Assembly: GCA_015493475.1 (NCBI GenBank)
Contig: WGDC01000001.1
Span: 12,968 to 76,967, forward strand
Source: Deltaproteobacteria bacterium
GTDB taxonomy: Bacteria; Desulfobacterota; Dissulfuribacteria; Dissulfuribacterales; QOAL01
DNA length: 64,000 bases
Direction: 5' to 3'
Shown: one piece after another, positions 14,103 to 39,377 of the stretch
How positions within the stretch are numbered: position 1 is the stretch's first letter
Layout: the number at the start of each line of letters is the position of its first letter
Program-made: the position numbers and the translations under genes
The notes under the pieces: generated by a model
Seen by the model: the letters and a program-made list of their open reading frames with translations, nothing else
Database searches by the model: none
Told to the model about the DNA's origin: nothing

Positions 14103-14114
14103 TTTTCCTAATCC

Positions 14115-14373: not shown

Positions 14374-15129
14374 TTATTGGCAGACAAGCCCGCCGTTAAC
14401 ATGCAAGGTATGCCCCGTTATGTAGGCGGCATCCTCAGACGCCAGAAAAGACACGGCTGCCGCGACCTCGTGGGGCTGCCCCATCCTGCCAAGTGGAATC
14501 TCTCCAATAAGGCGCTCCTTTATTTTATCGGGCAAAACCGCCGTCATGTCTGTTTCTATAAAACCAGGTGCTACAAGATTCACGGTAATGCCCCGGGAGG
14601 CCATCTCCTTGGCAACGGTCTTGGTTAAACCGGCAAGACCCGCCTTCGCAGCAGCGTAGTTGGCCTGCCCTGGGTTCCCAGAGACGCCGACAACTGAACC
14701 TATGTTAATGATCCTGCCCCACCTGGCCTTCATCATGGCCATGGCGCAGGCCTGCATACAGTTAAAGGCCCCCTTGAGATTAACTGAGACGACCTTATCC
14801 CAGTCCGACTCCTTCATCCTTGCAACAAGGGCGTCCCTTGTTATCCCTGCATTGTTTACAAGTATCTGGATAGGGCCGTTTTCCTTTATGAAACCCGATA
14901 CCTTTTCCTTGACAGAAGATGCATCCGATACGTCAAAGGGAAGAAGTGAACCGCTTCCTCCCTGGGCCTCAACCCTGTCAAGGACTTCCATGGCTGCGTC
15001 CTCGTTTGACGCATAGTTTATGATTACGTGAGCACCATCCCCGGCAAGCTTGAGGCAAATGGCCCTTCCAATGCCCCTTGAGCCTCCCGTGATCAGTGCA
15101 TTTTTTCCTTTCAGCCTTTTTTCACACAT
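14374..15129 (-). CDS. fabG: 3-oxoacyl-ACP reductase
   Basis: [14 protein letters not shown]...NNAG...[20 protein letters not shown] (SDR YxxxK)...HVNGG. Confidence 0.93.
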
Positions 15130-17118: not shown

Positions 17119-17123
17119 TTGTC

Positions 17124-18287: not shown

Positions 18288-18320
18288 TAAAAGCCCTCTC
18301 CTTCCTTTAAGAACTGCAAA

Positions 18321-19304: not shown

Positions 19305-19313
19305 GATTGAAAA

Positions 19314-20324
19314 TTAAATAATCCTGAGAACGTCTTTGCGGTTCGACATCGAGGCCTCGAGTTTCTCGGCAAGCTTTAGGGATGCCAGATTGTAAGCCAC
19401 ACCTATGGCGTTCATAACAGCCTTTGGCTCCGAGCTTCCATGGCAAATTATCGCCGTCCCGCCAACGCCGAGCAGCGGCGCGCCACCATACTCCGCGTAG
19501 TCCACTCTCTTTTTGAACCTCTTGAAGGCCTTCTTTGCCAAACCGTAACCCATGGTAGCTAGCAGGTTCCCTTCTATCTCGTTTCTGAGCATTGCTATCA
19601 CGGACTCTGCAAGACCCTCACTGAGTTTCAGACAGATATTGCCTACGAAGCCGTCGCACACAATTACGTCCACCTCTCCCCTGAAAACGTCCCTGCCCTC
19701 TACATTTCCACAAAAATTAAGATTACTGGTATCCAATAGATCGTAGGCCTTTTTTACCTGGGTATTTCCCTTACGTCCCTCCTCTCCTATGCTTAAAAGG
19801 CCTACCCTCGGACGTTCCTTTATCAGGAACTCCCTTACAAAAAGCGAGCCCATTATGCCGAACTGGAGGAGATGATGAGGCTTGCAATCTACGTTGGCCC
19901 CTACGTCTATCAGAAGGGCGGGTTCCCTAAGTGTGGGGATCAGGGTGGCAATGGCTGGCCTGACGCCCTTAATACGGCCAAGGATGAACATGGCCGTCGC
20001 AAGAGTCGCCCCTGAATTCCCGGCGCTCACAACACCTTGCGCCTTGCCGGCCCTGACGAGATCAAAGGCCACCCTTACAGAAGAATCCTTTTTGCGCCTC
20101 AAGGCGTCGGCGGGAGACTCAGCCATGCCGACCACCTCGGATGCGTGTTCAATCGTAATGGGCAGCTTCTCTATGGATGGAACAGTTGACAGCGCCTCTT
20201 CCAGGATATCCTTCTTTCCAACAAGGATTATCTCAGTCCCATGTTGCATAGCCGCCAACACCGCTCCCTTGACAAGGGGTAAAGGCCCCTTGTCACCGCC
20301 CATGGCATCAAGCGCAATAATCAT
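19314..20324 (-). CDS. plsX: phosphate acyltransferase PlsX
   Basis: MIIALDAMGGDKGP...SAGNSGA...GAPLLGVGG..ICHGSS. Confidence 0.95.
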   Translation of the reverse strand: MIIALDAMGGDKGPLPLVKGAVLAAMQHGTEIILVGKKDILEEALSTVPSIEKLPITIEHASEVVGMAESPADALRRKKDSSVRVAFDLVRAGKAQGVVSAGNSGATLATAMFILGRIKGVRPAIATLIPTLREPALLIDVGANVDCKPHHLLQFGIMGSLFVREFLIKERPRVGLLSIGEEGRKGNTQVKKAYDLLDTSNLNFCGNVEGRDVFRGEVDVIVCDGFVGNICLKLSEGLAESVIAMLRNEIEGNLLATMGYGLAKKAFKRFKKRVDYAEYGGAPLLGVGGTAIICHGSSEPKAVMNAIGVAYNLASLKLAEKLEASMSNRKDVLRII

Positions 20325-21964: not shown

Positions 21965-22440
21965 CAATTTTCATCCCTGATCTGAGTTGAAGATTTCTGG
22001 ACAGCCATATAAGGATAGAACACGTTCAAGACAGCTTATGCAAAACTCCGTGTCCAAGATGTCTGAAATGCTCCATAATTGCACTTTTTTACTGTACCAG
22101 TCCAATGATTACGCATAATTGCATGAAATCTCCCGGCATGTGCAACTACGATATATACACCATTTTTCTTGTAAGGAGTATCAAGCTGCTTTTTAAAGCT
22201 TTTCTCCTCACTCTTGTTCTTGTCAAAGACAAGAGGAGCATTTTTTAAGAATTCTCTTGTCCATGGCCTTACTCGACCCGGATAAATTCCAAATCCTGAG
22301 GCTATCTGAATAGTGGTCTCCTCCTTGATAGCTGCCAGTGCTGCCTTCGCCTTAAACTTTGAACTGTACTTTTCTTTGCCATTTGCATTTCTCCTTTCAC
22401 TGTTTTCCTGTTACTTCATACAACGAAAGCGAACAATACA
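21965..22440 (-). mobile_element. decayed IS3-family insertion sequence remnant (frameshifted orfA plus an internally deleted, truncated orfB fragment)
   Basis: My own minus-strand translation. From 22383: ATGGCAAAGAAAAG then, after a 1-nt frameshift, KYSSKFKAKAALAAIKEETTIQIASGFGIYPGRVRPWTREFLKNAPLVF (IS3/IS911 HTH transposase orfA). Further down in another frame: LDTEFCISCLERVLSLYGCPEIFNSDQG* (ending at 21971), the start of the IS3 integrase core (..PEIFNSDQGSQF..). The DDE domain is absent. The region is AT-richer than its flanks. The outer boundary is approximate. Confidence 0.75.
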
Positions 22441-24022: not shown

Positions 24023-25378
24023 TCAGTGTATGATTGTGCCAATCAGTGAATGGTGGCATGCCCTTTCAATGTAAACATTTACCAACCTTCCAACAAGGCC
24101 CTCTCTCCCTTCCATGTTCACCACATGGTTTCCCCTGGTCCTACCGGTCACCTTCGGGCCGGAACAAGACTCTATAAGAACCTTACATACAGAGCCCTGA
24201 AGCCGTCCATACTGCTCAAGCCCTATCTGGTTCTGCAGCTTTAAAAGCCTGGTAAGACGTCTCGATTTTACCTCCTCGGGCACCTTTTCCTGGAACCTTA
24301 CCGCAGCGGTGCCGGGCCTTTCGGAATACTTGAAGGCAAAGGCCTGATCAAAACGCACCTCTTCCAACAGGGACATGGTCTGGCGAAAATCCTCCTCGGT
24401 TTCTCCAGGGAAACCCACTATGAGATCAGTGGTTATGGTGATATCAGGACAAACATTTCTCAGTTTTTTCACCTTCTCGAGATACTGCGCCCTGCTATAT
24501 CGCCTTTTCATGCGTTTTAATATCCTGTCAGAGCCGGACTGGACGGGAAGATGCAGGTGTTCACAGAGGGTTGATAGGCTTCCGAAGCACCCTATCAACC
24601 GGTCTGAAATGTCCTTTGGATGACTCGTGGTAAAACGAAGCCTTATCCCTGGAAAGGCACGGTCGATCTCCAGGAGAAGAGAAGGAAAATCAACGCATTT
24701 ACTCAGGTTCTTCCCATAGGAGTTTACGTTTTGACCGAGCAAGGTCACATCCTTGACTCCCTGCTCAACAAGGGAGCCTATTTCCCGCAAAATGTCTTCA
24801 ACAGGCCTGCTAATTTCCCGCCCCCGCACGAGCGGCACGATGCAGTATGTACAGTAGTTATCACAGCCCTGCATTATGGTTACAAAGGCCCGCACGTCCC
24901 CTTTTCTCGGAAGGAGCGCATCGATGTATGGTATCTGGAAATCCCCTTGGAGACCCGTATCGTGGAGCCGGTCATTACCCCCTTGAAGCCTCTCCATGAG
25001 CATGGGTAACCTGTAAATACCCTGTGGGCCCACCACGAAATCCACCTGAGGCGCCCTTTGGAAGAGCTTGGCGCCAAGCTGCTGCGCAACGCAGCCAGCC
25101 ACCCCTATTTTCAGGACTGGATTGGAACATTTGAACCTTTTCAGGCGTCCGAGCAGGCTGTAGAGCTTGTGCTCGGCCTTTTCCCGGATAGAGCACGTAT
25201 TCACTATGATGAGGTCGGCCTGGTCCATGTAGGGAGTAAGGCAGTAGCTTGCCATGAGCATCTGGGCCATACGCTGGGAGTCATATTCATTCATCTGACA
25301 GCCGAAGGTAACTATATGCAGCCTGCCAGGGGCAGAACTCCATGGGAGTTTATCGTTTTCTCTCACCAGGCTTTTCAT
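24023..25378 (-). CDS. miaB: tRNA-2-methylthio-N6-dimethylallyladenosine synthase MiaB
   Basis: HIVTFGCQMNEYDS...NTCSIREKAE...IMQGCDNYCTYCIVP (radical SAM)...TTDLIVGFPGETEEDF, plus a TRAM-like C-terminus. Confidence 0.93.
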   Translation of the reverse strand: MKSLVRENDKLPWSSAPGRLHIVTFGCQMNEYDSQRMAQMLMASYCLTPYMDQADLIIVNTCSIREKAEHKLYSLLGRLKRFKCSNPVLKIGVAGCVAQQLGAKLFQRAPQVDFVVGPQGIYRLPMLMERLQGGNDRLHDTGLQGDFQIPYIDALLPRKGDVRAFVTIMQGCDNYCTYCIVPLVRGREISRPVEDILREIGSLVEQGVKDVTLLGQNVNSYGKNLSKCVDFPSLLLEIDRAFPGIRLRFTTSHPKDISDRLIGCFGSLSTLCEHLHLPVQSGSDRILKRMKRRYSRAQYLEKVKKLRNVCPDITITTDLIVGFPGETEEDFRQTMSLLEEVRFDQAFAFKYSERPGTAAVRFQEKVPEEVKSRRLTRLLKLQNQIGLEQYGRLQGSVCKVLIESCSGPKVTGRTRGNHVVNMEGREGLVGRLVNVYIERACHHSLIGTIIH

Positions 25379-25390: not shown

Positions 25391-27004
25391 TCAGGAAATC
25401 GGGAATTGATACAAACGGGTCTTCCAGCCCCCTTTTGTCTTGTCGGTAACCCCAATTATAATCCCTTCCCGCGTCATTGACACTCCGCACAGGGTACCCC
25501 TGAGACCGGAATCGGCTCTGAAAAACTCGTAACCGCCTGACAATGGAAAATAGAACAGGCCGTTGAGACCCTTTCCCTTTTCTTCGGGAATGACACCGTT
25601 AAAAAGTATCCCGCGGCCCAGGATCAAAAAATCCGCCTTTGCGGGCCCGCAGCATGGCCTGTCTGCCACCACTGGGAAAAGCGATGTCCACTGGTGGGAA
25701 CCGTTGGCATAGACCTTGAAAAAACCGTCAAAGCTTACATAGAAAAGTGTGCATGTACCGTTTACAGACTGGGCATCCGTGCTTGCTATGCTGAAATCGT
25801 TTGGAAACTCCTGCTGTTCCAAATATTCAATCCCGCTGTCGGTAGGCTTCAAGGAAAATACACGCTGGCCCCTGAAACGTTCCTTTTCATATTCCTGCCC
25901 CATAAGCTCGGGGCCGGCCTGCCCGCATCGAGTTCGCGCAAAGGAAAGCCACAGGTTTATCTCGTCCTGGACCAGGTGCAGCCGCCCGGCCCTGTAACTG
26001 AAAAGCTTCGATGTAAGGCCAGCGCCTTTTATGGCAACGTTAATCACAATCCATCCCCTTGAAAATGAAAGGCCACAGGGACATTCAAAATCGCCGAACC
26101 GGTAAAATTCCGCCCGGCCCCTGCGCCTGTATGGAGCCACTCCTACCTCGTTTTCCATCAGGTAGACAATCTCCTCCTGCCCGTCGCCGTCCAAGTCTGC
26201 CACTGCCACCTGAAGTACCTTTCCATTAAGCGTGCCCACGACTTTGGCCCTGGAAAAATCAAAAGAAAAGGGGGCCGGGGCCACCCTTGTTTCTATCAGG
26301 CTTGGCCTTTTCTCTGCCTTCTCCATAACGCTTTCCCCGGCAGAAGGTACCTTGTACACGGAAAACTCCTCCATGTCTGGACCGTAAACGTGAAGCGAGT
26401 CGTCCTGAAGGTCAAACATAAGGTCTATGCCAAAGGCCTCCATGGAACTTTTTGTCGGCACTGGCACCGGACCGCTTGACGGCTCTACCCAGTCGAGGTT
26501 TGGAAGAAGCTTGCGAAGGGAATAGCTGGAAAAAACAGGGGAGACGAGCCTTCCATCTATGAAGAGAGCCGCCCTCATACCTGTAAATCTCATGGCCTCC
26601 AAGCGGGGAGGCAACTTGCGGGAGCTCGAATAGACGGTACAGGCAGAGGAAGCGGGCGTGACCCGTGTAACCCTGCACTTTCCAACAACCTTGTCCTGGT
26701 AACCCAACACCCTTTTAGTGCCGGGCACATAAATAGGCATTCCCTTATCCACAAGGGCAAAAAGGTCTCCCGGCCTTACGCTCGAACGAGATCCCCTATC
26801 AAGGACGAACTGTTCCTCGCCGCTCTTCATAGCCATAGCAATGACGGGGCGAAAATCCACGGCGAGCTGCCTGAGCTGCTGAGCAGCCCCTGCATCAACC
26901 GGGCAATGCGCAATCAACGCGAAAACGAGAAAAAAGAGGACGCGCCGTAGTTTTACGGGGCAAACAGGGGCTGTCCGTTCCGGTGGGCTTTTATATGCAG
27001 CCAT
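25391..27004 (-). CDS. secreted hypothetical protein with FG-GAP/VCBS-like motif
   Basis: Signal-like VLFFLVFALIAHCPVDAGAA. VAVADLDGDGQEEIVY is an FG-GAP-type Ca-binding loop. The start at ATG 27004 is preferred to the ORF-track start at 27115. Function unknown. Confidence 0.5.
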   Translation of the reverse strand: MAAYKSPPERTAPVCPVKLRRVLFFLVFALIAHCPVDAGAAQQLRQLAVDFRPVIAMAMKSGEEQFVLDRGSRSSVRPGDLFALVDKGMPIYVPGTKRVLGYQDKVVGKCRVTRVTPASSACTVYSSSRKLPPRLEAMRFTGMRAALFIDGRLVSPVFSSYSLRKLLPNLDWVEPSSGPVPVPTKSSMEAFGIDLMFDLQDDSLHVYGPDMEEFSVYKVPSAGESVMEKAEKRPSLIETRVAPAPFSFDFSRAKVVGTLNGKVLQVAVADLDGDGQEEIVYLMENEVGVAPYRRRGRAEFYRFGDFECPCGLSFSRGWIVINVAIKGAGLTSKLFSYRAGRLHLVQDEINLWLSFARTRCGQAGPELMGQEYEKERFRGQRVFSLKPTDSGIEYLEQQEFPNDFSIASTDAQSVNGTCTLFYVSFDGFFKVYANGSHQWTSLFPVVADRPCCGPAKADFLILGRGILFNGVIPEEKGKGLNGLFYFPLSGGYEFFRADSGLRGTLCGVSMTREGIIIGVTDKTKGGWKTRLYQFPIS

Positions 27005-27260
27005 AGAAATAAGGGTCCAAGAGAAACAGATTGAGACTCCTGAAAATCTGTCTTTTTTATCCAATGACTTAGTTATATTTGCGAAAAAAACGGTCAAACA
27101 CCTTGAACATTTCACACTTTTCCGCTCAAGCAGGGCTTGATCTCGAAAAAGGTGCTTTTCTAATGTCTCCAGTTGCCACAGAGTATCCTGAGCGAAAATT
27201 TAACAGCCAATATAACAAGACGGGGAAAAAAGGAAACAAAAAGGTATATGGGGATGGGTA

Positions 27261-27296
27261 ATAAAAAAGGCCCCTCATCTTGCGGAATCAGGGCCT
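27261..27296 (-). terminator. Rho-independent terminator downstream of dsrC
   Basis: On the minus strand, AAGGCCC...GGGCCTT (7-bp stem, plus-strand coordinates 27266-27272 / 27290-27296) is followed by TTTTTTATT. Confidence 0.7.
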
Positions 27297-27319
27297 TGAA
27301 CTGACAAGTTTCGCAACGC

Positions 27320-27640
27320 CTACACACAACCGGTGGGCTTTGGAAGTCCAGCCATCTTGCAGGCTCCCTTGCCTGGTCCTGAGGGAAAAAGCTCGTATAT
27401 CTTCTTAAGGGGGTAACCCGTGGTCTTGGAAAGAATCCTGACCATGGGAGCAATTCCATTCTTCTTGAAATAGTCCTGGAGGACCTCGATAACCTTCTTG
27501 TGATCCTCGGTCAGCTCGCTGATACCCTCCTGCTCCATGACGTATTCTACCCAGTTTTCATCCCACTGCTCCATTCCCTTTGTAAGAAAACCGTCTTCAT
27601 CGACTTCATAAGCCTTGCCTTTGTACTCTATAGTTGCCAT
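27320..27640 (-). CDS. dsrC: dissimilatory sulfite reductase gamma subunit DsrC (TusE/DsrC family with both conserved C-terminal cysteines)
   Basis: MATIEYKGKAYEVDEDGFL...C-terminal arm GACKMAGLPKPTGCV, with a penultimate Cys and a Cys 11 residues upstream, the DsrC hallmark. Strong GGAGGG RBS. Confidence 0.92.
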   Translation of the reverse strand: MATIEYKGKAYEVDEDGFLTKGMEQWDENWVEYVMEQEGISELTEDHKKVIEVLQDYFKKNGIAPMVRILSKTTGYPLKKIYELFPSGPGKGACKMAGLPKPTGCV

Positions 27641-27859
27641 ATTGCCCTCCTTTTGGATTATTCTCTTATGTATGTCATGGCATATCGAGACAGTTTCTTA
27701 CTATAACCAAATATCTTTGTCAAGGCTCGTTAATTTTTTTTCAAGTTTGCGAAACGAAAAAAAATACTGTTATTTAAAGAGGTTATAACGAACAAAATCA
27801 CCAGAGTGGGGTTTTTTTGAATAGTTATTCATTTTTTTCACAATCAAGGATAAGAGAGT

Positions 27860-29584
27860 TTAGCCCTGCCCTTGAAGGGCCTTAAGATGTTCCCTGGCCC
27901 ACTCTATGGAGGGATCGATTTCCAAGGCCATCCTATACCACTTAATGGCGGCAGGTATCAACCCGAGCTTCCTTAGGTTACTGCCTATGTTTGCATAGTC
28001 CACGGCGGAGCCTGGATCGATAGATATGACCTTCTCGAAACACTCGATTGCATCGGTGTACCTGCCCATTTCGTACAGGCACGTGCCAAGTATGTTATGG
28101 ATCTCCTTGAGCCGAGGATCAAGCCCCCTTGCAATCTCAAGCTGTTTCGCCGCATCTTCCAGCCTTCCAAGCTGGCGTAAACAGTTCCCGAGGTTACAGT
28201 AAAGGCTTGCAAGCTCACTGTCCGGGGGAGAAAGGGAAAGGGCCGCTTGGTATCTCTTAAGGGCAGAAGAGATATCGCCCATAGACTCAAGCAGATGTCC
28301 CATGTAAAACTCGATCTCGAATCTGCCTGGATAGGCCGCCTTCAGCCTTTCCAGCACCCCGGATGCACTTGCGGGAGCGAGATAGCCGCCGGATGCCGCA
28401 ACGCGCGCCATGTGAAACGGGAGGTCTATACCGAGAGTACGGTTGCGGAAATGGCTACCGGGAATCATGGCGTACACAACAGGAATGCATAGATCCCGAC
28501 AAGTTACCTCTGCAATATAAACCGGGAGATCCGCCCTGCCGAGGGCACCGGCCAGAAGCTCCACCTCCCCCCTGAAATTCCGGGAAGAACAGTCAGGAAG
28601 CTCGGCAAGACGTGTCACAGCGCCTGATTTAACAACGTAATCCGCCTCTTCCAGGGTGGCGAACTTTGGCAGGCCGCTTTCAATGTACTTACCGTCCGTA
28701 TCAAAATCACCGGCGAGCTGCGCAATTTCGGTAATGGCCCTGATGGCCGCCCTTTCCGGGCTTGTGGAGGTGCCGGCCGTATAGACTATCTCGCTTCTGT
28801 CGGGATAGGTGGAAGGGTCCCATGCGATGGCTCCAACGGTGGGAATGCCTGTGCCGAGAGAAAAATCCTTAAGCAACAACTCTACGCCGTTTGCTTTAAA
28901 CCTTTCAATGAGTTCAACGAGCAGCCCATCCCTTATGCTCTGCTGATCTATAGTGGGGGTCCTGATCCTTCCATAGGTTATGAGGGAACAGACATGACGC
29001 TCCACCACCTCGCAAATCGCCTGGACCGCCGCCTCCTCAAGGCTGTTGCCTGCCGCAGAGCCGTTGTATTCAAAAATAGGCCACATCCAGGAAAAAGGGA
29101 CCCGGCAAGGGACGTTTAACATTGCATCAAGCCCCTCAGCCCATCCTATGGGGAATTCATGGAGTAGTTGGCTTTCCGTGTCACCAAGGCGTTCCTTAAG
29201 GTGAATGGCCTTCAGCAGGTGCTCTGGCGGAAAGCCATCCTCGCCTGTTTCTCCGCACGAGGCAACGTCAAGGGAGGCATCCTGCAAAAAGCGGAAAAAG
29301 CTGTACCGCTCCGCAATCTCCATAACAGCGCTGGCCTTGGCCTGGGCCTCTGTAACGCCCTTCCCCATCTGCTTCATGGTTCCGGTAACCGCTGCTGCCT
29401 CGGGGGAATAGCGGCTCACATAAACGGGAATGCCAAGCCTGCCCTTGTCCACCCTTTTGACCTCCATCAGGACCGGCACAGACATGGAAGAAAACCTTTC
29501 AATCACCCATTCCAGGGTCTGTGTGGGTGTCCTGACCTTGTCAAAGGACAGACCTGACTCTTTAAATGAATCACATAGCCTCAT
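27860..29584 (-). CDS. YcaO-domain protein fused to C-terminal TPR repeats
   Basis: GKGVTEAQAKASAVMEIAERYSFF is the YcaO ATP/Mg-binding motif context. The YcaO core covers about 400 aa. The C-terminal ~160 aa carry 4-5 TPR units (YYMGHLLESMGDISSALKRYQAAL..., LGNCLRQLGRLEDAAKQLE..., LGTCLYEMGRYTDAIECFEKVI...). Confidence 0.85.
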   Translation of the reverse strand: MRLCDSFKESGLSFDKVRTPTQTLEWVIERFSSMSVPVLMEVKRVDKGRLGIPVYVSRYSPEAAAVTGTMKQMGKGVTEAQAKASAVMEIAERYSFFRFLQDASLDVASCGETGEDGFPPEHLLKAIHLKERLGDTESQLLHEFPIGWAEGLDAMLNVPCRVPFSWMWPIFEYNGSAAGNSLEEAAVQAICEVVERHVCSLITYGRIRTPTIDQQSIRDGLLVELIERFKANGVELLLKDFSLGTGIPTVGAIAWDPSTYPDRSEIVYTAGTSTSPERAAIRAITEIAQLAGDFDTDGKYIESGLPKFATLEEADYVVKSGAVTRLAELPDCSSRNFRGEVELLAGALGRADLPVYIAEVTCRDLCIPVVYAMIPGSHFRNRTLGIDLPFHMARVAASGGYLAPASASGVLERLKAAYPGRFEIEFYMGHLLESMGDISSALKRYQAALSLSPPDSELASLYCNLGNCLRQLGRLEDAAKQLEIARGLDPRLKEIHNILGTCLYEMGRYTDAIECFEKVISIDPGSAVDYANIGSNLRKLGLIPAAIKWYRMALEIDPSIEWAREHLKALQGQG

Positions 29585-29621
29585 CTACTACTTTGTTGTA
29601 AGGAATGTACCTGGAACCCCG

Positions 29622-30119
29622 CTATTCCTGCTTGTACTTCTCGCAAACGGCTTCAATTATTTCCTCAGCCCTGAACCAGTCCTCCTGATCTGCTCCCGGC
29701 TCCATGCCCCTGCGTTCATACAACGTATGGGCCACCGCGGCAACCCATTTTTGCCGGCCTTCCTCGCAGGCATGGTCAACGAAACGGATTCTCGTCATCC
29801 CACGGCCCGGCGCCCCCTGTATCTGAAGCCCGGCCACAGGATTAGCGGCCTCATCGTCACTTATGAGATAAATTGCCCTCGGAACCTCCACTGCATGAGC
29901 AAGATGCACAAGATTATCGGGGTCGGTGGTTCCCAAAAATATCTCTACCCTCCTTCCCCTTTCATCATAATCTATTCCAAGCAGCGGCATTCCGGGCTCT
30001 CCAAGTATGAAATCGTCACCTATCTGAACCACCGCAGTCCTGTATTGATTCATCCTATTAAAATCTTTAATAAAACTTTCCCATTCCTTTTTCAAAATCC
30101 GTGTTTTTTTCTCGGCCAT
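29622..30119 (-). CDS. hypothetical protein with C-terminal DUF2934-like motif
   Basis: 165 aa. The C-terminal AHTLYERRGMEPGADQEDWFRAEEII resembles the DUF2934 consensus (YxxWExRGxPxGxDxxDWxxAE). The N-terminal domain is unrecognised. Confidence 0.5.
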   Translation of the reverse strand: MAEKKTRILKKEWESFIKDFNRMNQYRTAVVQIGDDFILGEPGMPLLGIDYDERGRRVEIFLGTTDPDNLVHLAHAVEVPRAIYLISDDEAANPVAGLQIQGAPGRGMTRIRFVDHACEEGRQKWVAAVAHTLYERRGMEPGADQEDWFRAEEIIEAVCEKYKQE

Positions 30120-30240
30120 CTCGTGTACCTCCCTTGCACTTGGATAAAAGTAAGCTAAACACTCCCCACTATTGTGTCAAAAGCCGGAGACGAATTCCCC
30201 TTGCCGACGCAGCCTGAAAAAACACGGGGTTTCAAGGAGG

Positions 30241-33200
30241 CTACTGCCTGAGAACAGCAATGCGCCTTAGGTACTCTAAGGTCATAGAATCTGCCCCAGA
30301 ACCAAGAAAATCGTAAAGGGGACCCTGGAAAAGCAGCCTTCCACCACGCCTCCCTCCACCCGGACCAAGATCAATAATCCAGTCCGACCCCGCTATCATG
30401 GAGAGATTGTGCTCTACAACGACTACCGTGTTGCCGAGCCCGGCAAGCCTTGTCAGGCAAGCAGAAAGCCTTTGCACATCCTCCATGTGGAGGCCGACAC
30501 TCGGCTCATCGAGAAGGTACAGCCTTGCCTGGGTAACGGTCTTGGACAGCTCCTTTGCTATCTTGAGTCTCTGGGCCTCGCCTCCCGAAAGGGACGGGCT
30601 TGGCTGGCCAAGGCGCAGGTAGCATAGCCCGAGGTCTTTCATCACCATGAGTCCCCTCTTTATGGCAGGAACGGTGCCGAAAAATTCAAGGGCCTCGGAA
30701 ACGGTCATATCAAGAATCTGGCTTATGTCCCGTGATTTCCACCGTATGGACAGGACCTCTTGTCTGAATCTTTTGCCGAGGCAGACAGGACACTTGACAT
30801 AAACGTCTGGAAGTATGCCGAGTCTTTGCCTTAGCTGACCTTGGCCCCTGCATTCGGGACATGCCCCCTGTGTCGTGTTAAAGGAAAAGTGCGAGGGGCC
30901 AAACCCCCTTACCCGTGCGGCCGGCGTACATGAAAAAAGCTTGCGGATATAGGAAAATATCCCAATGAACGTGGCCGGACAGGACCTCGGCGTCCTGCCA
31001 ATAGGACCGTGGTCAACGTAAAGAGCACCACTTACCGCCTCGGCTCTTCTTATTCCTTTGATACATAAAACATCCCCTTCCACTGCCCCCTGTAACGCCT
31101 CCATGAGGCTGGTTTTCCCGGAGCCGGATACTCCGGTGAATACGGTTACCGCGCCAATGGGTATCATGGCGTCGATGGCCGAAAGGTTATGCCTGCTTAC
31201 ACCACGGAGCTCGAGAAAATCCGTGTCGGACCCAAGCCTCCTGCTTCTCTCAATGACGGCCTTTCCATGCCTTAATCCCCTTGCGGTCCTCGATTCGGGA
31301 TGTTTCAAAAGCCCCTCCACGTCGCCCGAGTAAATCACCCTCCCCCCCTGACTTCCTCCCCCGGGACCAAGATCCACCACGAAATCAGCATGGAGGATAG
31401 TCTCTTCATCATGCTCTACAACTATCACGCTGTTGCCCCTGCGTGACAGGTCCTTGAGAATATGGACAAGACGCCGGTTGTCAGAAGGATGCAGGCCTAT
31501 AGTCGGCTCATCAAGTACAACGGTAATACCCGTAAGACTCGATGCGCTTTGTGAGGCAAGGCTGACCCTCTGGGCCTCTCCACCTGAAAGGCTGTCCCCC
31601 GACCTGTCCAGGCCGAGATACCCGAGGCCCAGTTCAGACATCAGCCTGAGCCTCTCCATGACCTGGCCGGTGAGCATCATAAGCAGATCTTTCCTTTCCA
31701 CCTGGAACTTCTTCACAGAACGCCAGTCCTCAAGACGCCCCATAGCCTCGTCCACCTCCATCCTGAAAAACGACGCAATATCAAGGCCGTTTATTTGCCA
31801 GGACAGGGCATATTTGGAAAGCCTTGCCCCCATGCATACAGAACAGGCGTCTTCATTGCCATTCCTGCCAGTTCCGAGACATGCCGGGCATCTGCCCACC
31901 TTGCTATGAAAGGAAAAGAGAAGGGGATCCGGATCCTCCAAGGACACATGGCACTCGGGGCAGAAGTACCTGATGCTGAACCACCTCTTTCCAACACCGG
32001 GGAAGAGACAAAATACAGTACCCCGCCCAGCCCTGACAGCCGCAGACAGGACCTGTCTAAACTCCTTAACGGAGACGCCTTCTCTGAAAGGTCCCCAGAC
32101 CCAGGAGACATCGTGTTCCGTGTACATAGAGATAGACAGCTCCTGGCCACGTTGAAAGAGCCTGTCATCCACAAGCACGAAATCCGCCCCGGCAGCAAAC
32201 CCCATTTCAACCTCCCGCCGGTGCCTGCCTTTTCTGTGACGAACACGGGGCGCCCCGATGTAGAAGGCATCTGCGCCAAGAAGCCTCTCAATCCCCTTTT
32301 CTATCTGGTCCATGTTCGCATGGCCCATGGGCATGGAGCACTCGGGACAGACAGGACTCGAGCAATGGGCATAAAGGAGCCTCATGTAATGGGCCGTCTC
32401 CGATAGAGTCGCCACCGTTGACATGGGGCTTCCTCTGCAAGCCCTCTGTTCTATGGCAACCGATGGGCTTAGTCCCCTAACCTCGTCTGCGTCAACCCTT
32501 TCATGAAGCCTCACGAACTGCTTCATGTAGGAAGGGAGGCTTTCCATGTAGCGCCTCTGGGCTTCCTTATAAATGAGGTCAAATGCCATGGACGATTTAC
32601 CGGATCCGGAAACCCCAGTCACTACAACGAGCCTGTTCCTTGGTATCTTGATGTCTATGTTTTTGAGGTTATGATGCCTTGCCCCCTTTATCTCGATAAC
32701 ATTACCAGACTGCCCCCTGCCTTTTCTCTCCATCTTCCCTGCTTGGCACTGCCCGTCCCTTCCTGAGCCGCCGTATTCCCGAATGGCCCGGGCTGTTGGC
32801 GTATCCTCATTGAGAAGCCATTCAGGGCTACCCTGAAAGAGCAGGTAACCGCCATTATCTCCACCCCCTGGGCCAAGCTCAATAACCTGGTCGGATGAAA
32901 GAATGGTCGAGAGATCATGCTCCACCACCACCACGGTATGGCCGTGACGACAAAGGCCCCTTACCTGCCTTATAAGGCCCTGCACCTCGGTATGGTAAAG
33001 CCCCATGGTCGGTTCATCAAGAATGAACAGGCACCTGCCTTTCCCAGAAATGAGGTGCCTTGCTATCTTAAGCCTTTGGGAATCACCTGCGGAAAGGGTG
33101 TTAAGGGGCTGGCCGAGAAGCAGATGGCCAAGGCCGAGTTCAAGGGCAGGGCCAAGGATCTTTGCCACCGCCCTTTGGCTGCCAAGGGCACCCGCCACCT

Positions 33201-35475
33201 CGGAAAGGGTCATCTCAAGCCACTCGTTCATATTTTTACCCTTCAGCCTTATCTCAAGTGCCCTATCAGAAAACCTTCTTCCCTTACAGTCGGCGCAAGG
33301 CACCATGACATCGGGCAAAAACTGCATGTCAAGAAGCTCGTAACCCTGCCCGCCGCAGCTCTGGCACCTGCCTCCAACAACATTGAGAGAAAAATAGCCG
33401 GGCCTGAGCCCGAGGGATATCGCCTTCCGGGTTTTGGAAAAGAGCCTCCTAAGCGGATCAAGGATCTTGAGATAGGTTCCCGGACAACCTCGCGGGGTTC
33501 TCGAGGCAGGCTCCTGATCTATAAAGACCACAGAGTCAAATGGCTCGGGTATGATTATGGACTTAAACCTCCCGGGCTCGGAACAGGGCCGCCCCATCAT
33601 CCTTAAAAGCCCCCTGTAGATGCACTGCTCAACGAGGGTGGACTTTCCAGAGCCGGACACCCCGCAGACGCACGTCACCATCCCCATCGGGATTCGGCAC
33701 GTTATGTCTTTCAGGTTATTCTCGGTAAGCCCCCTGATCTCAAGAAAACTCGGGGAACCATCCATTGGCCGTCTCCCCTTGATAGCTACTGCATGAGGCG
33801 GCTCCAGCGTGTCTTGGGAAGGATGGCCCTCCGCAACCACGCGGCCTCCGTGCCTCCCGGACCCAGGACCCAGGTGGATAATCCTGTTTGCGCACCGGGC
33901 CATTAAGGGATCGTTCTCTGTCATCAGAACGGTATTGCCTGATTTCCTCAAGCCCTCAATTACTTCCCTTACGCCCTTAACGTCTGCGGGGTGAAGCCCA
34001 GAAGAAGGCTCATCTATACAATAAAGGGTCGCGGAAAGATTTGCGGATACGCCCTTTGCGATACAGAGCCGGGAAAGCTCCCCGCCCGAAAGGGTGCGCG
34101 AGCGCCTGTGAAGGGCAAGGTAGCCAAGGCCCGCCTGCCTTATTAAGGAAAGCCTCCTTTCAAGGTCTTGGAGCAGGGAACGGGAGGCCTCATCAAGACC
34201 CTCCCGTTCCCCGAGCCCCCTGCACCATTTAAGGGCGTCATGGACACTTAGCGCATAAAACCCGGCTATACTCAACCCTGAAAGCCTGTAGGACAGGGCC
34301 TCCTCGTTAAACCTAGCCCCCTTGCAGGAAGGACAAATATTGTATGCCCTGTATCTTGAAAGCAGAATTCGTATGTGGGCCTTGTATCTTTTTGATTCAA
34401 GCCGGCGAAAAATCTCCCTTACGCCGTACCACTCCTCCTTTCCAAAGAGGATGGCGTCTCTGTCCTGCTGGGAAAGCTCCCTCCAGGGCCTCGTGGCATC
34501 CATGCCCCACTTGCTACAGCAGGCGAGGAGAAACTCCTTTTCATCCTCCCAGTTTTCAAGGGGTCTTATTGCCCCTTCAATGACAGAGAGTGACTTGTCA
34601 GGAATCACTATGTCATAATCTATGTCCATTACCCTTCCGAAACCGCTACATGATGGGCACGCCCCCTCTACGGAATTGAACGAAAAAAGAAGCATTCCCG
34701 GAGGTTTCTTTTCGGTCCCGCACTCCGGACATACAGCCCCTTCGTGAAAGGCCCTTGTCTCCACCTTTCCGCCATCCGCGGGGAACACCGCGTACAGACT
34801 CCCGCCCGAAAGGCTGAAGGCGGTCTCAACCGCCTCCTTGACCCGCTGAATAGAAAGGGATTTAAGGGATAGTCTTTCAATAATCACGTAATGATTCTTG
34901 TGATCCGAAAGCCGCCGTACATCTACCTCGGACCCGTCCACCACACGGCCGTCCACAAGAATGCGCCTGTAGCCTTCCCCCACGAGGTCGTCGAGACGCT
35001 GAGCCCCTGCCTCTATACAGATGTAGCCGCAGGTGAAACCATTGCAGGCCGCCTCCTTGAAACAGTCAAACACGTCCTTTGGGCCGCACCGTCTTACCGG
35101 CACCCGGCAGCGTGTACAATAACCCGTGGCGTTTCTGAAAAAGAGCATCCTTGCCGGAAAGCTTACCTCGGAAAGAGTGGCCACTGTTGACCGGGAATTT
35201 CTCACCGGGTTGGACTGACCCACACCTATGGCAGCGGGAAGATTTTCCACCCGCCGTACCCTCGGCCTCGGTAGCCTTTCTAGAAACTGGCGCACATAGG
35301 GAGAAAAGGTCTCCATGAACTGTCTCTGGGCCTCACAGTAAATGGTGTCAAAGACAAGCGAGGACTTTCCTGAGCCGGAAGGACCGCAGAATGCGCAAAT
35401 GGAACCAGCCTCTATCTCAAGGTCGACGTCCTTCAGGTTGTGCTCCATGGCTCCGCTGATAATTAGGGCCTTCAT
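30241..35475 (-). CDS. tandem-duplicated UvrA-like ABC ATPase (two UvrA units, four nucleotide-binding domains, in one 1744-aa polypeptide)
   Basis: Walker A x4 ([36 protein letters not shown]). ABC signatures x4 ([36 protein letters not shown]). Walker B x4. UvrA zinc modules (CPECG...[15 protein letters not shown] and [20 protein letters not shown]). The second unit starts near 32700 ([15 protein letters not shown]). The ATG at 35475 ([17 protein letters not shown]) is preferred over the ORF-track start at 35721. Confidence 0.9.
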
Positions 35476-35614
35476 GGGAAAAGAAGATAAGACATGCTGG
35501 ATTTTCCTCAAGGCCCGGCAGGCGCGCAAGCGTTCGATGGCAGCTCCGAAACCTTTATGTAAAAGTGATTGCATGATAAGCTTACGTCTATTCCCGTCAA
35601 AAAGGAGAAAACTC

Positions 35615-38308
35615 ATGGGCATGACCGGCCTGTCGCATCTATTGTCGCCTTCAAGGATAGCAGTGTTCTCAAGTTCCCAGATTGACCAAAGATTTGAAAA
35701 AAGGCTCTTCCAGAACATCATCTCCTCCGGTTTCCGGGGGCCAATCTATCCCATCGACATAGAAAGGGAGGCGGTATGCGGGATCCCCGCCCACCGGACC
35801 ATAAAGGCCATAAAGAAGAGGCCGGACCTGGCGCTTGTCACAGGGTCACCGGACTTGGTACCGGGGGTCCTCGAAGAGTGCGGCAAGGCGGAAATACCTG
35901 CCGCCATCATATTTTCGATGGATTTCAGGCACAGGACTGCGGACAGTAAAAAGATCGCATCGAGGATAAAGGATATTTGCAAGGACTACAACATCCGGTG
36001 CATAGGCCCAAATTCCCTCGGAATCATAAGACCGGGCAATAACATAAATATCAGCGTGAGTCTCAAGGCGCCGCCAAGGGGAAAGGTGGCCTTCCTGTCC
36101 CAGAGTTCCACGCTTGCAGCCTCCATTCTCGACTATGCGGCGTCCAAGCACGTGGGGATGAGCACCTTCGTGTCCCTTGGGGCACAACTTGATGTCGACT
36201 TTTCAGACATCATCGACTTCCTGGCCATGGACCCGGAAACGAGGGGAATCATCCTCTACCTCGAATCCATAAAAAACGGCCGCAAATTCATCAGCGCAAG
36301 CCGCTCCTTTACCCGGACAAAGCCCATGGTGGTAATTAAGGGGGGCAGGTTTGAACAATCAAGACTCGTCTCCTTCAGCCGCATGGGCTCCCTTGCCGGC
36401 GAGGACATGGTTTACGATGCTGTGTTCAAAAGGGCGGGCATGGTCAGGGTGAAAGACGTGCTCGAGCTTTTCAACACCTCCGAGGCCCTTTCAAAACAGC
36501 CCGCTCCCAAGGGTAACCACCTCGCAATAGTCACCAACGCCGGAGGGCCGGCCGTTCTGGCGATAGATGTCCTCATAAAAAAGGGCGGGCACCTTGCCAC
36601 CCTGGAAAAGGAAACCGTTGACAGGATAAAAAAGGCCCTTCCTCCCACGGCCCCTGTTTCAAACCCTGTTGACTGCCTGTCTGACGCCTCGGCCTCGAGA
36701 TTTTCAGACGTGATAGACGCCCTTCTCCAGGATGATACCTCGGACGGGGTCCTCGTGATAGTGACGCCCCAGCCCTACACGGAACCTGGCGATACGGCCC
36801 AGACGCTTATAGGGCTTTCCCGCAGGCATCCCTACAAAACCATCCTTGCATGCTGGATGGGCAGTGAAGACATGGACCGGGCAAGGAAGATCCTTAACGA
36901 GAATGGGATACCCACCTTCGTAGCCCCGGAACAGGCGGTCAAGAGCTTCCTTTACATGTACGAATACGAGGCCAACAGGCAGATGCTGTCCCAGACACCT
37001 TCCAACATCCTCGTGGATTTTCATCCGGACAAGGAAAGGGCCCTTTCCATCTTCAAATCCGTTGCAAAGGACGGAAGGCTGTTCTTGCTTGAGCGGGAGA
37101 CTAAGCAGGTACTCGAGGCCTACGGCATCGAAACCACTCCCATGGCCCTGGCAAGGAGTCCGGAAGAGGCCCTCAAGATTGCGAGGAAAACTGGATTTCC
37201 CGTGGCTCTCAAGATAGAATCCCCGGACGTTCCCAACAAGAGCAAGGCGGGAGGGGTAAGACTGCACCTTTTGGAGGAGGATGTGAAAAAGGCGTTCCGG
37301 GAACTCAAGACCAACCTCAAGAAGTACATGCCTAATGCCGATTTTCACGGTTGCACTGTGGAACCTATGATACTTGGCATGGGGTACGAATTCGCAATGG
37401 GCGCCCAGAAAGACCCTACCTTCGGCTCGGTAATAGTCTTCGGGCTGGGGGGCCAGCTCCTCGAGGCGGAAAAGGACTACGCGGTAGGCCTCCCGCCGCT
37501 TAACCAGGCAGTTGCAAGGCGCCTTATGCAAGACACAAGGATATGCAAGTACTTATCGGAGGAACAGGACGGCCTCGAGATGATGGAAATCTTAGAAAAG
37601 GCACTGGTGCGTTTCTCCATACTCGTGGCAGACTTTTCGTTCATCAAGGAGATAGAAATCAACTCCTTTTTCCTTGAAAAGCAACGGGGTGTGTGCCTTG
37701 ACGGAAGGATCGTGCTCGAAGAAGAAGTACTCGAAGGTGTACGGGTTGGCCAGGGAAGTACCTGCCCGGAACACCTGGTAATATGCCCGTATCCCTGCCA
37801 GTACATAGACACCATGAAGCTGAAGGAGGGAACCCCTTACACCATCCGCCCCATCAAGCCGGAGGATGAACCCCTCATGGCTGAACTCTTTTCCACCTTC
37901 TCCGAGCAAACCATCATCAACAGATTCTTTCAGCTAAAGAAGAGCCTCACCCACGATGAATTGGCGAGATATTGCCAAGTGGATTATGATAGGGAAATCG
38001 CCCTCGTGGCGGTATTAGAATCCCAGGACAGGGAACGGATAATCGGCGTATGCAGGCTAACCATAATGCCTGACGGGGAAAACGCCGAGCTTGCAGTGGT
38101 AATAGGAGACCCATGGCAGGGACACGGCATCGGGAAGGCCCTCATGGCCAAGACCATTGAAGTGGCAAGGGAAAAGGGCCTGAAAAATATCTGGATGGAT
38201 GTTTTGAGAGACAACAACCCCATGAAAGGCCTCGCCAGGAAATTTGGCTTTAAGCTCGCGGAGTCCGAGGATCCGGATATCCTGCGCTTTGTCCTAGGGA
38301 ACCTTTGA
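35615..38308 (+). CDS. Pat-type protein acetyltransferase (ADP-forming acyl-CoA synthetase-like domains + C-terminal GNAT)
   Basis: AAGGAG RBS then ATG at 35615. LLSPSRIAVFSSS (CoA-binding start), succinyl-CoA-ligase-like and ATP-grasp regions, and a C-terminal GNAT (IGVCRL...VVIGDPWQGHGIGKALM). The ORF-track start at 35342 overlaps the divergent uvrA-like gene. Confidence 0.85.
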   Translation: MGMTGLSHLLSPSRIAVFSSSQIDQRFEKRLFQNIISSGFRGPIYPIDIEREAVCGIPAHRTIKAIKKRPDLALVTGSPDLVPGVLEECGKAEIPAAIIFSMDFRHRTADSKKIASRIKDICKDYNIRCIGPNSLGIIRPGNNINISVSLKAPPRGKVAFLSQSSTLAASILDYAASKHVGMSTFVSLGAQLDVDFSDIIDFLAMDPETRGIILYLESIKNGRKFISASRSFTRTKPMVVIKGGRFEQSRLVSFSRMGSLAGEDMVYDAVFKRAGMVRVKDVLELFNTSEALSKQPAPKGNHLAIVTNAGGPAVLAIDVLIKKGGHLATLEKETVDRIKKALPPTAPVSNPVDCLSDASASRFSDVIDALLQDDTSDGVLVIVTPQPYTEPGDTAQTLIGLSRRHPYKTILACWMGSEDMDRARKILNENGIPTFVAPEQAVKSFLYMYEYEANRQMLSQTPSNILVDFHPDKERALSIFKSVAKDGRLFLLERETKQVLEAYGIETTPMALARSPEEALKIARKTGFPVALKIESPDVPNKSKAGGVRLHLLEEDVKKAFRELKTNLKKYMPNADFHGCTVEPMILGMGYEFAMGAQKDPTFGSVIVFGLGGQLLEAEKDYAVGLPPLNQAVARRLMQDTRICKYLSEEQDGLEMMEILEKALVRFSILVADFSFIKEIEINSFFLEKQRGVCLDGRIVLEEEVLEGVRVGQGSTCPEHLVICPYPCQYIDTMKLKEGTPYTIRPIKPEDEPLMAELFSTFSEQTIINRFFQLKKSLTHDELARYCQVDYDREIALVAVLESQDRERIIGVCRLTIMPDGENAELAVVIGDPWQGHGIGKALMAKTIEVAREKGLKNIWMDVLRDNNPMKGLARKFGFKLAESEDPDILRFVLGNL

Positions 38309-38395
38309 CGGGTAGCCGTGTCCGTCGTGGGAATAAACGAAAAAACTGGCACCTGCTGACGGTTTTCCAACACATCCGCGAGAGGTAAAAGATAT

Positions 38396-39361: not shown

Positions 39362-39377
39362 ATCAGAGGTAAAAATT

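Follow-up and report, generated by a model that had tools for sequence, protein, structure and literature searches.

The 64,000-nucleotide stretch analysed here (the window) carries on its minus strand a gene for a YcaO enzyme fused to tetratricopeptide repeats (TPRs), located between a gene for a DUF2934 protein and dsrC. The question raised by this locus is what such an enzyme modifies and whether its neighbours take part. The best explanation, to which we assign a probability of about 0.55, is that YcaO-TPR is a stand-alone family member acting on a backbone amide of a cellular protein, probably as a thioamidase, with DsrC being a plausible target or sulfur donor.

The first-pass annotation had described three ORFs separated by gaps of 37 and 219 nt, and these were all confirmed on the minus strand. 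The 165 aa DUF5335-like/DUF2934 protein is encoded at positions 29622..30119. The YcaO-TPR gene (27860..29584, stop codon included; 574 aa) lies 37 nt downstream of it and is followed after 219 nt by dsrC (27320..27640; 106 aa). The dsrC product matches PF04358 (E-value 8e-35) and TIGR03342 (110 bits, cut-off 53.5), has both cysteines of the C-terminal arm and ends in CKMAGLPKPTGCV, which places it in the DsrC (TusE/DsrC/DsvC) family. The dsrC leader (27641..27859) is AT-rich, with a GC content of 31% as against 49–54% in the genes, and includes a strong Shine–Dalgarno sequence (AAAGGAGGG). It probably contains a promoter of its own; a simple scan of the minus strand detected no consensus promoter there. 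Downstream of the dsrC stop codon, an 8 bp GC-rich stem (AAGGCCCU/GGGGCCUU) is followed by a U-run (27261..27297), and this terminator-like hairpin was missed by a simple terminator scan because its loop is longer than 8 nt. The folding energy is −16.1 kcal/mol over a 61 nt stretch, which is no better than that of shuffled sequences (z −0.48). Thus, of the leader and terminator attributed to dsrC earlier, the AT-rich leader stands, and the hairpin with its U-run is present, but its fold does not exceed the shuffled background.

The YcaO catalytic domain occupies residues 1–400 (28385..29584, minus strand), and the Pfam YcaO family (PF02624) matches residues 73–376 with an E-value of 3.3e-65 and 221 bits at a cut-off of 25.7, so the protein belongs to the YcaO superfamily. 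The SAVMEIAERYS stretch (residues 85–95; 29300..29332), earlier taken as the context of the ATP-binding motif, is indeed a conserved YcaO motif, the first of the protein; S85, A86, M88, E89, E92, R93, and S95 are invariant among 51 homologues. However, the published ATP-binding motif, defined as Sx6-7Ex3Qx3ExxER (PMC7774982), is found elsewhere, at residues 176–196 (SAAGNSLEEAAVQAICEVVER; 28997..29059). It is intact in the form S176-x7-E184-x3-Q188-x3-E192-xx-E195-R196, and all of these residues except S176 are invariant in the same alignment. Judging by these residues, the enzyme looks catalytically intact. A near-invariant, family-specific loop is located at residues 291–310 (GDFDTDGKYIESGLPKF; 28655..28714). 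G292, F294, and Y300 are invariant in it, and P306 is invariant in a 10-sequence alignment and nearly so in the 51-sequence one. In the AlphaFold2 model (pLDDT 91.8 overall) this loop is the least confident region, with a pLDDT of 61–72, and it is a candidate mobile substrate lid.

The C-terminal TPR domain (residues 404–574; 27863..28375) is recognised by TPR_1 (E-value 5e-26) and related families. The model contains ten helices at residues 404–573, which form about five TPR-like pairs, in agreement with the number of units counted previously, and sequence matches in the PDB include a consensus TPR protein and the TPR of OGT. A conserved block consisting of D523, S526, Y530, A531, N532, I533, and N536 can be noted here in the 51-sequence alignment. 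The calculated pI of the whole protein is 5.19 (net charge −17), and the median pI of the family is 5.12.

At an E-value of 1e-30 or lower, 3464 matches to YcaO-TPR were found, and of the 600 stretches of GTDB species genomes that were matched, 499 encode relatives. The best 120 of 2071 matches (E ≤ 1e-10) all combine YcaO and TPR in about 575–590 aa. Full-length homologues are present in all 90 loci compared; these and the 120 best matches align over residues 1–570, and the mean column identity of the homologue alignment is 54%. More distant relatives also have TPRs, from 2 to about 18. There is thus nothing exceptional about YcaO-TPR within its family, which is conserved, very large, without dedicated partners, and found in the Desulfobacterota/Thermodesulfobacteriota, among sulfate-reducing bacteria. 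The best reading is that the family is vertically inherited and stand-alone and has a housekeeping role.

YcaO-TPR scores below the cut-off of every characterised YcaO subfamily, and its surroundings do not resemble a RiPP locus. No E1/ThiF, TfuA, SagB-like/dehydrogenase or other RiPP gene was detected among the large ORFs between 9.6 and 48.4 kb of the window (about 18 kb on either side). The intergenic gaps contain no Cys/Ser/Thr-rich or conserved small ORF, so a precursor candidate is absent there. Neither E1, TfuA, a dehydrogenase nor a precursor is conserved across the 90 loci. The absence of an E1/Ocin-ThiF partner, TfuA, and precursor noted at first sight therefore extends to this whole region, and a RiPP locus was rejected. 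The SagD/LynD/TruD-type TOMM cyclodehydratases share the YcaO fold and the ATP site with YcaO-TPR; unlike them, it has no E1/Ocin-ThiF partner or fusion, dehydrogenase, or precursor, and it reaches only 94.3 bits against the SagD model TIGR03604 (cut-off 219), so an azoline-forming cyclodehydratase was rejected too. The same applies to a TfuA-associated thioamide-forming YcaO, as a TfuA gene is neither adjacent (9.6–48.4 kb) nor a conserved neighbour in the 90 loci. YcaO-TPR probably does not make an antibiotic peptide but acts on the backbone of one of the cell's own proteins.

To our knowledge, the characterised YcaOs all activate peptide amides, and the backbone thioamides made by them are known on two proteins only, McrA and, since 2026, uL16. 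The McrA-modifying YcaO acts on a protein and functions without TfuA in Methanocaldococcus jannaschii and Methanopyrus kandleri. The McrA-glycine thioamidating enzyme is the closest characterised YcaO by sequence (TIGR03266, 130.8 bits; MJ1094, E-value 1.6e-21); the score is below the equivalog cut-off of 365, and this assignment was rejected. The YcaOs of M. jannaschii (MJ1094; 6PE3/6PEU) and M. kandleri (6CI7/6CIB) give the best local fit to the predicted structure, with an rmsd of 4.4 Å and a TM-score of 0.72 relative to the target. They differ in having about 380 aa and no TPR domain, and their substrate McrA does not exist in these bacteria.

The architecture of YcaO-TPR is that of Escherichia coli YcaO (EcYcaO), in which an N-terminal YcaO domain is joined to a C-terminal TPR-type helical domain of about 150–170 residues in a protein of about 580 aa. 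Both are encoded by stand-alone genes without E1, TfuA, or precursor, and both have the ATP-site motifs. EcYcaO (4Q84/4Q85/4Q86) is the sole PDB entry that Foldseek matched to YcaO-TPR over its full length, in about 600 aligned columns. It has been shown that EcYcaO thioamidates the folded ribosomal protein uL16 at Met82 without a partner, TfuA, or precursor (Rice et al. 2026, PMC13063428). It is therefore no longer true that a substrate has yet to be assigned to any TPR-fused YcaO; in addition, a genetic phenotype of the TPR-fused DVU2210 was described in 2020. The proposal that YcaO-TPR is a protein-modifying enzyme gains from this comparison, and it is most reasonable to suppose that the substrate is a protein, since an enzyme of the same architecture acts on a folded protein. 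The 150-residue TPR domain of EcYcaO mediates dimerisation and only "might" aid binding (PMC13063428), and it is uncertain whether the TPR domain of YcaO-TPR would recruit a target. The two proteins also differ substantially. They are 26% identical over 370 aa of the YcaO domain (BLASTP), their TPR domains cannot be aligned by sequence, and the domain orientation of EcYcaO departs from that of the YcaO-TPR model (TM-score 0.46, rmsd 12.6 Å). They come from different phyla and have different gene neighbours. EcYcaO is strongly acidic (pI 4.38, net charge −50), which is complementary to the basic uL16. YcaO-TPR is not strongly acidic and scores 52 bits against NF040716 (YcaO_for_S12; cut-off 700) over residues 163–288 only. 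Together with the low identity, this led us to reject it as an EcYcaO orthologue.

The neighbourhood of the YcaO-TPR gene is mostly variable among the 90 loci, and dsrC is the most persistent neighbour, found within 2 kb in 17 of them. The adjacency has survived deep divergence and rearrangement, and dsrC can stand on either side of the YcaO-TPR gene. At least four gene orders can be distinguished, namely EF-G–[DUF2934]–YcaO–dsrC, YcaO–rSAM–dsrC, ValRS–dsrC–YcaO, and PRTase–YcaO–dsrC, and three cultured isolates are among these loci. In Thermosulfuriphilus, the YcaO gene is followed by an overlapping radical-SAM gene and then, 80 nt further on, by dsrC. The YcaO-adjacent DsrC proteins all have the two-cysteine arm, and nearly all share an identical C-terminus, ACKMAGLPKPTGCV. 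The other 73 loci have no dsrC nearby, and in whole clades RNase D, TsaE, or other housekeeping genes adjoin the YcaO-TPR gene in its place. Thus, the suggested link to DsrC is made plausible, but not established, by an adjacency that survives rearrangement and is missing from most of the family. Many neighbours belong to translation and RNA metabolism. An EF-G paralogue is located directly upstream in 12 loci, TsaE is found in 15 and RNase D in 19, lepA overlaps the start of the gene in one locus, and RsmA/TsaD, ValRS, and MiaB also occur.

If the presumed orthology holds, the family has already been described through a member from Desulfovibrio vulgaris, the "YcaO-like TPR protein" DVU2210. 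DVU2210 has the same domain architecture, comes from the same phylum-level group and has identical spacing of the ATP motif (SAGNTEEESILQGSCELVER and SAAGNSLEEAAVQAICEVVER). P0241, which represents a 50% cluster and has a motif near-identical to that of DVU2210, is 37% identical to YcaO-TPR over residues 8–571, the TPR domain included. Loss of DVU2210 together with loss of sat leads to molybdate resistance (2020), and the selected S195R mutation falls in the ATP motif. During sulfate-free syntrophic evolution DVU2210 was mutated repeatedly, as were sat, aps, and dsrC. Without DVU2210, D. vulgaris respires sulfate and sulfite normally, and expression of the protein in E. coli had no effect, molybdate sensitivity not being conferred. 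According to the locus tags, dsrC (DVU2776) is not adjacent in D. vulgaris, and the molybdate/sat phenotype was described in this species, outside the clade of the window.

Taken together, the comparative genomics puts DsrC first among the candidate functional partners, plausibly as target or as sulfur donor. In the former case, YcaO-TPR would dock DsrC, and an amide of the flexible C-terminal DsrC arm (...AGLPKPTGCV) would be converted to a thioamide, or a thiazoline would be formed at Gly-Cys, tuning the sulfite-reduction cycle. This agrees with the persistence of dsrC when other flanks change, with the selection of DVU2210 and dsrC mutations under the same sulfate-free conditions, and with the nature of the arm, an extended and invariant element of a type accepted by YcaOs; the order in Thermosulfuriphilus is also reminiscent of the modification genes clustered with mcrA. 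We nevertheless consider DsrC rather unlikely as the substrate, given that adjacency is missing in 81% of the loci, that the DVU2210 deletion respires sulfate normally, and that dsrC, with its own leader and terminator-like hairpin, need not be co-transcribed with the YcaO-TPR gene. We know of no backbone modification of DsrC on record, and a literature search returned no publication combining the terms YcaO and DsrC. Alternatively, a persulfide or trisulfide on the DsrC arm might provide the sulfur with which YcaO-TPR thioamidates a different protein, and would thus stand in for the TfuA/ThiS route. DsrC belongs to a sulfur-relay family and dsrC is adjacent in the 17 loci; for the TfuA-less EcYcaO the sulfur source was left open, with primary-metabolism proteins suspected (PMC13063428). 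However, TfuA-less methanogen YcaOs work with sulfide (PMC13063428), and a donor may be unnecessary where free sulfide is as plentiful as in these organisms, so this role of DsrC seems improbable.

About as unlikely as DsrC being the substrate is a functional analogue of EcYcaO that thioamidates uL16 or another ribosomal protein, the dsrC adjacency then being inherited synteny or regulatory hitch-hiking. The two-domain architecture, the top full-length structural match, the stand-alone gene without TfuA and the strikingly frequent translation and RNA neighbours are all consistent with it. Moreover, the synteny of E. coli ycaO with focA-pfl, conserved in Gammaproteobacteria, is unrelated to the real substrate, a precedent which indicates that ycaO synteny can mislead. 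On the other hand, YcaO-TPR is not an EcYcaO orthologue and lacks its acidic hallmark, and the genetic results in D. vulgaris suggest a link with sulfur metabolism and not with translation. A small oxyanion was proposed as the substrate by Zane et al., with ATP-dependent activation of molybdate, sulfate, or a related anion and a TPR domain that only oligomerises. The molybdate resistance of the sat/DVU2210 double deletion and the S195R mutation fit this idea. We find it distinctly improbable, as the characterised YcaOs known to us act on peptide amides, the lack of effect in E. coli suggests a host-specific macromolecular partner, and the strongly conserved TPR surface, together with expanded TPR arrays in relatives, argues for protein binding. 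The least probable candidate is the DUF2934 protein, as substrate or as a partner that is obligatory for recognition and takes over the function of E1/RRE. It matches DUF2934 above the cut-off (E-value 1.5e-9) and DUF5335 below it (22 bits, cut-off 27). Its gene lies directly upstream, at 5–61 nt, in 13 of the 90 loci, all of the window's clade, including Dissulfurimicrobium, and the protein is conserved along its entire length except for a variable C-terminal tail. It is not adjacent in the other 77 loci, is also missing at the loci of five close relatives that keep dsrC (L006, L007, L011, L018, and L081), has no Cys/Ser/Thr-rich stretch, and yielded no structural or PDB clue. The DUF2934 protein is therefore a clade-specific companion of YcaO-TPR, and its earlier nomination as a substrate can hardly apply to the family as a whole.

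For the preferred stand-alone enzyme acting on a cellular protein, the most probable mechanism is as follows. YcaO-TPR would bind a folded conserved protein, a loop or arm of which would enter the YcaO active site. ATP would serve for O-phosphorylation of the tetrahedral adduct of the backbone amide, and sulfide, acting as the nucleophile, would give a thioamide. Sulfide is in ample supply in these organisms, and a protein persulfide may be an alternative source. The TPR domain would serve to dimerise the enzyme and/or to dock its protein partner. More tentatively, with the odds clearly against it, YcaO-TPR may work with DsrC as an accessory factor of dissimilatory sulfur metabolism that has so far escaped notice, either modifying its arm (thioamide or Gly-Cys thiazoline) or drawing sulfur from its persulfide or trisulfide for another protein; in some lineages, this system would be joined by a small radical-SAM enzyme whose gene separates those of YcaO-TPR and DsrC. 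Such an accessory role would explain why DVU2210 is lost along with sulfate-respiration genes in sulfate-free evolution, as well as its contribution to molybdate toxicity.

If none of the partner readings holds, YcaO-TPR is one more housekeeping-family member without an assigned function. The comparative data narrow this orphan YcaO to a short testable list of partners, namely DsrC, uL16 or other ribosomal proteins, and the DUF2934 protein, and a DVU2210 deletion strain of D. vulgaris already exists. A third thioamide target, in sulfate reducers, would, if true, enlarge a class of protein modifications that is still very small, and it might account for the second, puzzling way in which molybdate is toxic to Desulfovibrio. 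If DsrC is the target or is required, the modification would bear on the sulfur carrier at the centre of a pathway of global importance.

The YcaO-TPR gene lies in a run of minus-strand genes which, in transcription order, starts with a double UvrA of 1826 aa (30241-35721) and continues with a DUF5335-like/DUF2934 protein of 165 aa (29622-30119; DUF2934 E-value 1.5e-9), the YcaO-TPR protein of 574 aa (27860-29584; YcaO domain at residues 73-376 with 221 bits, TPR_1 E-value 5e-26) and DsrC of 106 aa (27320-27640; PF04358 E-value 8e-35, TIGR03342 110 bits), the C-terminus of which is CKMAGLPKPTGCV. Beyond dsrC, the strand encodes a 574-aa protein without family assignment, a methylthiotransferase, and a bifunctional-nuclease-domain protein. 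The locus was described correctly in the first-pass annotation, since the three products were identified by Pfam/NCBIfam, with gaps of 37 nt between the DUF2934 and YcaO-TPR genes and 219 nt between YcaO-TPR and dsrC, and since neither RiPP genes (TfuA, ThiF/E1, SagB-type or other) among the large ORFs from 9.6 to 48.4 kb nor Cys/Ser/Thr-rich small ORFs in the intergenic gaps were detected. The only conserved small gap ORFs, found in the L004 locus, run antisense to the dsrC leader. An AT-rich leader and a terminator had also been ascribed to dsrC. The leader indeed has a GC content of 31%, and an 8-bp hairpin with a U-run was spotted 3' of the gene by eye and folding; however, the scan for consensus promoters and terminators revealed no terminator, as well as no minus-strand promoter 5' of any of the three genes. 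An Rfam scan of 27000-30400 gave no match.

Several features of the flanks can be noted. Each of the two UvrA units in the UvrA ORF is complete (TIGR00630, 1531 bits in three stretches). This ORF directly precedes the DUF2934 gene, a position occupied by an EF-G paralogue in most relatives. The 574-aa protein directly 3' of dsrC (25391-27115, minus strand) shows only a weak FG-GAP match; its homologues (26-51% identity) occupy the same post-dsrC position in at least eight other loci, and in Dissulfurimicrobium (L082) this slot contains a 537-aa unannotated gene. The methylthiotransferase 2.5 kb downstream (24023-25378), a radical-SAM enzyme, was considered as a possible parallel to the old link between E. 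coli YcaO (EcYcaO) and RimO. This lead was rejected, because the protein scores as a MiaB equivalog (511.6 bits, cut-off 355) and stays below the threshold of the RimO model (279.7, cut-off 357). Farther away, the plus strand at 35342-40022 encodes a Pat-like protein acetyltransferase of 988 aa (ADP-forming acyl-CoA synthetase domains and a C-terminal GNAT), then a histone-deacetylase-family protein (38396-39361) and a CBS-pair protein (39378-40022), which together look like a protein acetylation/deacetylation module. On the minus strand, plsX, fabH, fabG and fabF-like fatty-acid synthesis genes are interspersed with genes for an acyl-CoA dehydrogenase and for the two ETF subunits (12843-20324), where the ETF alpha subunit bears an N-terminal 2x[4Fe-4S] ferredoxin domain. 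A 44-aa minus-strand ORF (21971-22105; …LDTEFCISCLERVLSLYGCPEIFNSDQG) resembles an integrase core fragment of an IS3-type transposase; if it is one, it would be a mobile-element remnant.

The SAVMEIAERYS segment, previously regarded as the ATP-binding context, is the first conserved YcaO motif, whereas the published ATP motif, Sx6-7Ex3Qx3ExxER, is located at residues 176-196 and is intact. A query with the YcaO domain only retrieved 2071 proteins at E ≤ 1e-10; the best 120 of them are all 570-600 aa long and all combine YcaO with TPR. Named sources of these best matches are Dissulfurirhabdus, Dissulfurimicrobium, Thermosulfuriphilus, Thermodesulforhabdus, Syntrophobacterales and 'Deltaproteobacteria'. 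In species-level genomes, relatives are encoded in 499 of the 600 matched stretches, and the best 80 loci, every one from Desulfobacterota/Thermodesulfobacteriota, align across residues 1-570. An alignment of 51 members has 54% identity per column, and its invariant residues fall into two regions, the ATP site and the last TPRs (in the latter D523, S526, Y530, A531, N532, I533, N536). Distant relatives (30-35% identity) contain TPRs too, from 2 to about 18. A Rosetta-stone search among ten longer or shorter YcaO relatives indicated that only the TPR number varies, with no DsrC or other informative fusion. The family is known but biochemically uncharacterised, and the window protein is an ordinary member of it.

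The nearest characterised YcaO by sequence is the McrA-glycine thioamidase of methanogens (TIGR03266 130.8 bits, under the cut-off of 365; MJ1094 E-value 1.6e-21); the score for the SagD subfamily is also under its cut-off. The AlphaFold2 model (pLDDT 91.8, pTM 0.89) consists of a YcaO core and ten helices at 404-573. In a Foldseek search, EcYcaO (4Q86/4Q85/4Q84) was the top and sole full-length match (~600 columns, TM 0.46, rmsd 12.6 Å), both domains being common to the two proteins but differently oriented, while archaeal YcaOs gave the best fit to the core (rmsd 4.4 Å). The loop at residues 291-310 (GDFDTDGKYIESGLPKF; 28655-28714, minus strand) is nearly invariant in the family and has no counterpart in EcYcaO. 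With a pLDDT of 61-72, it is the least confident stretch of a model that is very confident elsewhere; a role as a mobile substrate lid is possible.

The direct substrate of EcYcaO is a folded ribosomal protein, uL16, which it thioamidates at Met82. EcYcaO has no RRE, TfuA or nearby precursor, and its TPR domain of 150 residues mediates dimerisation and might aid binding (Rice et al. 2026, PMC13063428). The window protein is not its orthologue: it scores 52 bits with the EcYcaO model NF040716 (cut-off 700), and identity is 26% in the YcaO domain, the TPR being unalignable. An unusually low pI is the recognition mark of EcYcaO relatives (PMC13063428); this hallmark was looked for in the window protein (pI 5.19, net charge -17, against 4.38 and -50 in EcYcaO) and in its family (median pI 5.12) and was not found. 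DVU2210, the YcaO-like TPR domain protein of D. vulgaris, likely belongs to the same family, because a 50%-cluster representative with a near-identical ATP motif, standing in for it, aligns to residues 8-571 with 37% identity, TPR included.

Comparison of 90 loci (the window and L001-L086, L088-L090) revealed no family-wide partner gene. An RNase D gene lies upstream in 19 loci of the Syntrophobacteria clade, TsaE upstream in 15 of the Desulfobulbales clade, and a 431-aa radical-SAM gene upstream in six of Desulfobulbia type. In the window's clade, an EF-G paralogue that is not part of the str operon (887 bits with the EF-G equivalog model) is found 12-700 nt upstream in 12 of the 90 loci. Translational GTPases abut YcaO-TPR in L085 (3199-5004, plus strand), L081 (3943-5979) and L082 (2324-4360); L085 is the one locus (1/90) in which lepA runs with its stop into the start codon of YcaO-TPR.

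The conservation of dsrC adjacency, proposed earlier as a check, proved partial: dsrC is present within 2 kb in 17 of the 90 loci, in several lineages and gene orders, but absent in 81%. The orders are EF-G–(DUF2934)–YcaO–dsrC (Dissulfurirhabdus thermomarina, Dissulfurimicrobium hydrothermale and many MAGs), UvrA–DUF2934–YcaO–dsrC (the window and L004), YcaO–rSAM–dsrC (Thermosulfuriphilus ammonigenes and L025), ValRS–dsrC–YcaO (L059, L088) and PRTase–YcaO–dsrC (L055). All YcaO-adjacent DsrCs have the canonical two-cysteine arm. On the neighbour-joining tree, dsrC adjacency dominates the window's clade and appears again on three early-diverging branches within the other clade. dsrC is the most persistent neighbour of YcaO-TPR. 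It outlasts EF-G and RimK of the same presumed ancestral block and survives changes in gene order, a pattern that selection for linkage usually leaves.

A radical-SAM protein of small size (~290-320 aa), whose matches to AmmeMemoRadiSam, NrdG and glycyl-radical activases are all weak, is encoded immediately 3' of YcaO-TPR in four of the 90 loci: L083 (6736-7695, plus strand), L025 (1977-2843), L031 (9816-10760) and L074. In T. ammonigenes, there is an 8-nt overlap between the YcaO stop and the start of this radical-SAM gene, with dsrC 80 nt further downstream. L025 also has a second, divergent DsrC-like gene (3014-3328, minus strand; 42% identical, ending CKIAGLPKPTGCI), which lies on the opposite strand, with the radical-SAM gene on one side and the true dsrC on the other.

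The DUF2934 protein, also suggested as a substrate, lies directly upstream in 13 of the 90 loci, but all of them are confined to the window's clade. Its conservation extends along the entire sequence, the tail being variable, and its alignment contains no Cys/Ser/Thr-rich segment. No PDB relatives were found by sequence or profile, and a single-sequence structure model was unusable (pLDDT 47). This protein is a clade-restricted companion of YcaO-TPR and is unlikely to be a universal substrate.

The non-RiPP role proposed at first is sound, and given the EcYcaO precedent, the best reading is that YcaO-TPR would act on a protein substrate. The most likely chemistry, we infer, is thioamidation, because both protein thioamidases are its closest relatives among characterised enzymes, the locus lacks a cyclodehydratase partner and these bacteria live in sulfide. 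The TPR may recruit the target or only dimerise the enzyme; protein binding is favoured by the strong conservation of the TPR and by its expansion in relatives.

As for the target, a sulfur theme and a translation theme compete. The former draws on the persistent dsrC linkage and on D. vulgaris genetics: DVU2210 contributes to molybdate toxicity, and resistance requires the loss of both sat and DVU2210, the selected mutation being in the ATP motif (Zane et al. 2020, PMC7774982). In sulfate-free syntrophic evolution, DVU2210 is a high-G-score gene listed with sat, aps and dsrC mutations. However, the single deletion respires sulfate normally, which shows that any DsrC-related role is not essential; it also grows denser in fermentation, and expression of DVU2210 in E. 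coli has no effect (PMC7774982). The thioamides of McrA and uL16 are dispensable too. The translation theme follows the EcYcaO precedent and the neighbours EF-G, LepA, TsaE, RNase D, RsmA, ValRS and MiaB. Any reading of the target from synteny is weakened by EcYcaO itself, whose focA-pfl synteny is conserved yet irrelevant to its substrate. We give the DsrC-linked reading a probability of about one in four. A literature search found no paper combining 'YcaO' and 'DsrC', and the rearrangement-resistant linkage of the YcaO-TPR family to dsrC, not found in the literature, is new here. It provides a short, testable list of partners for this family.
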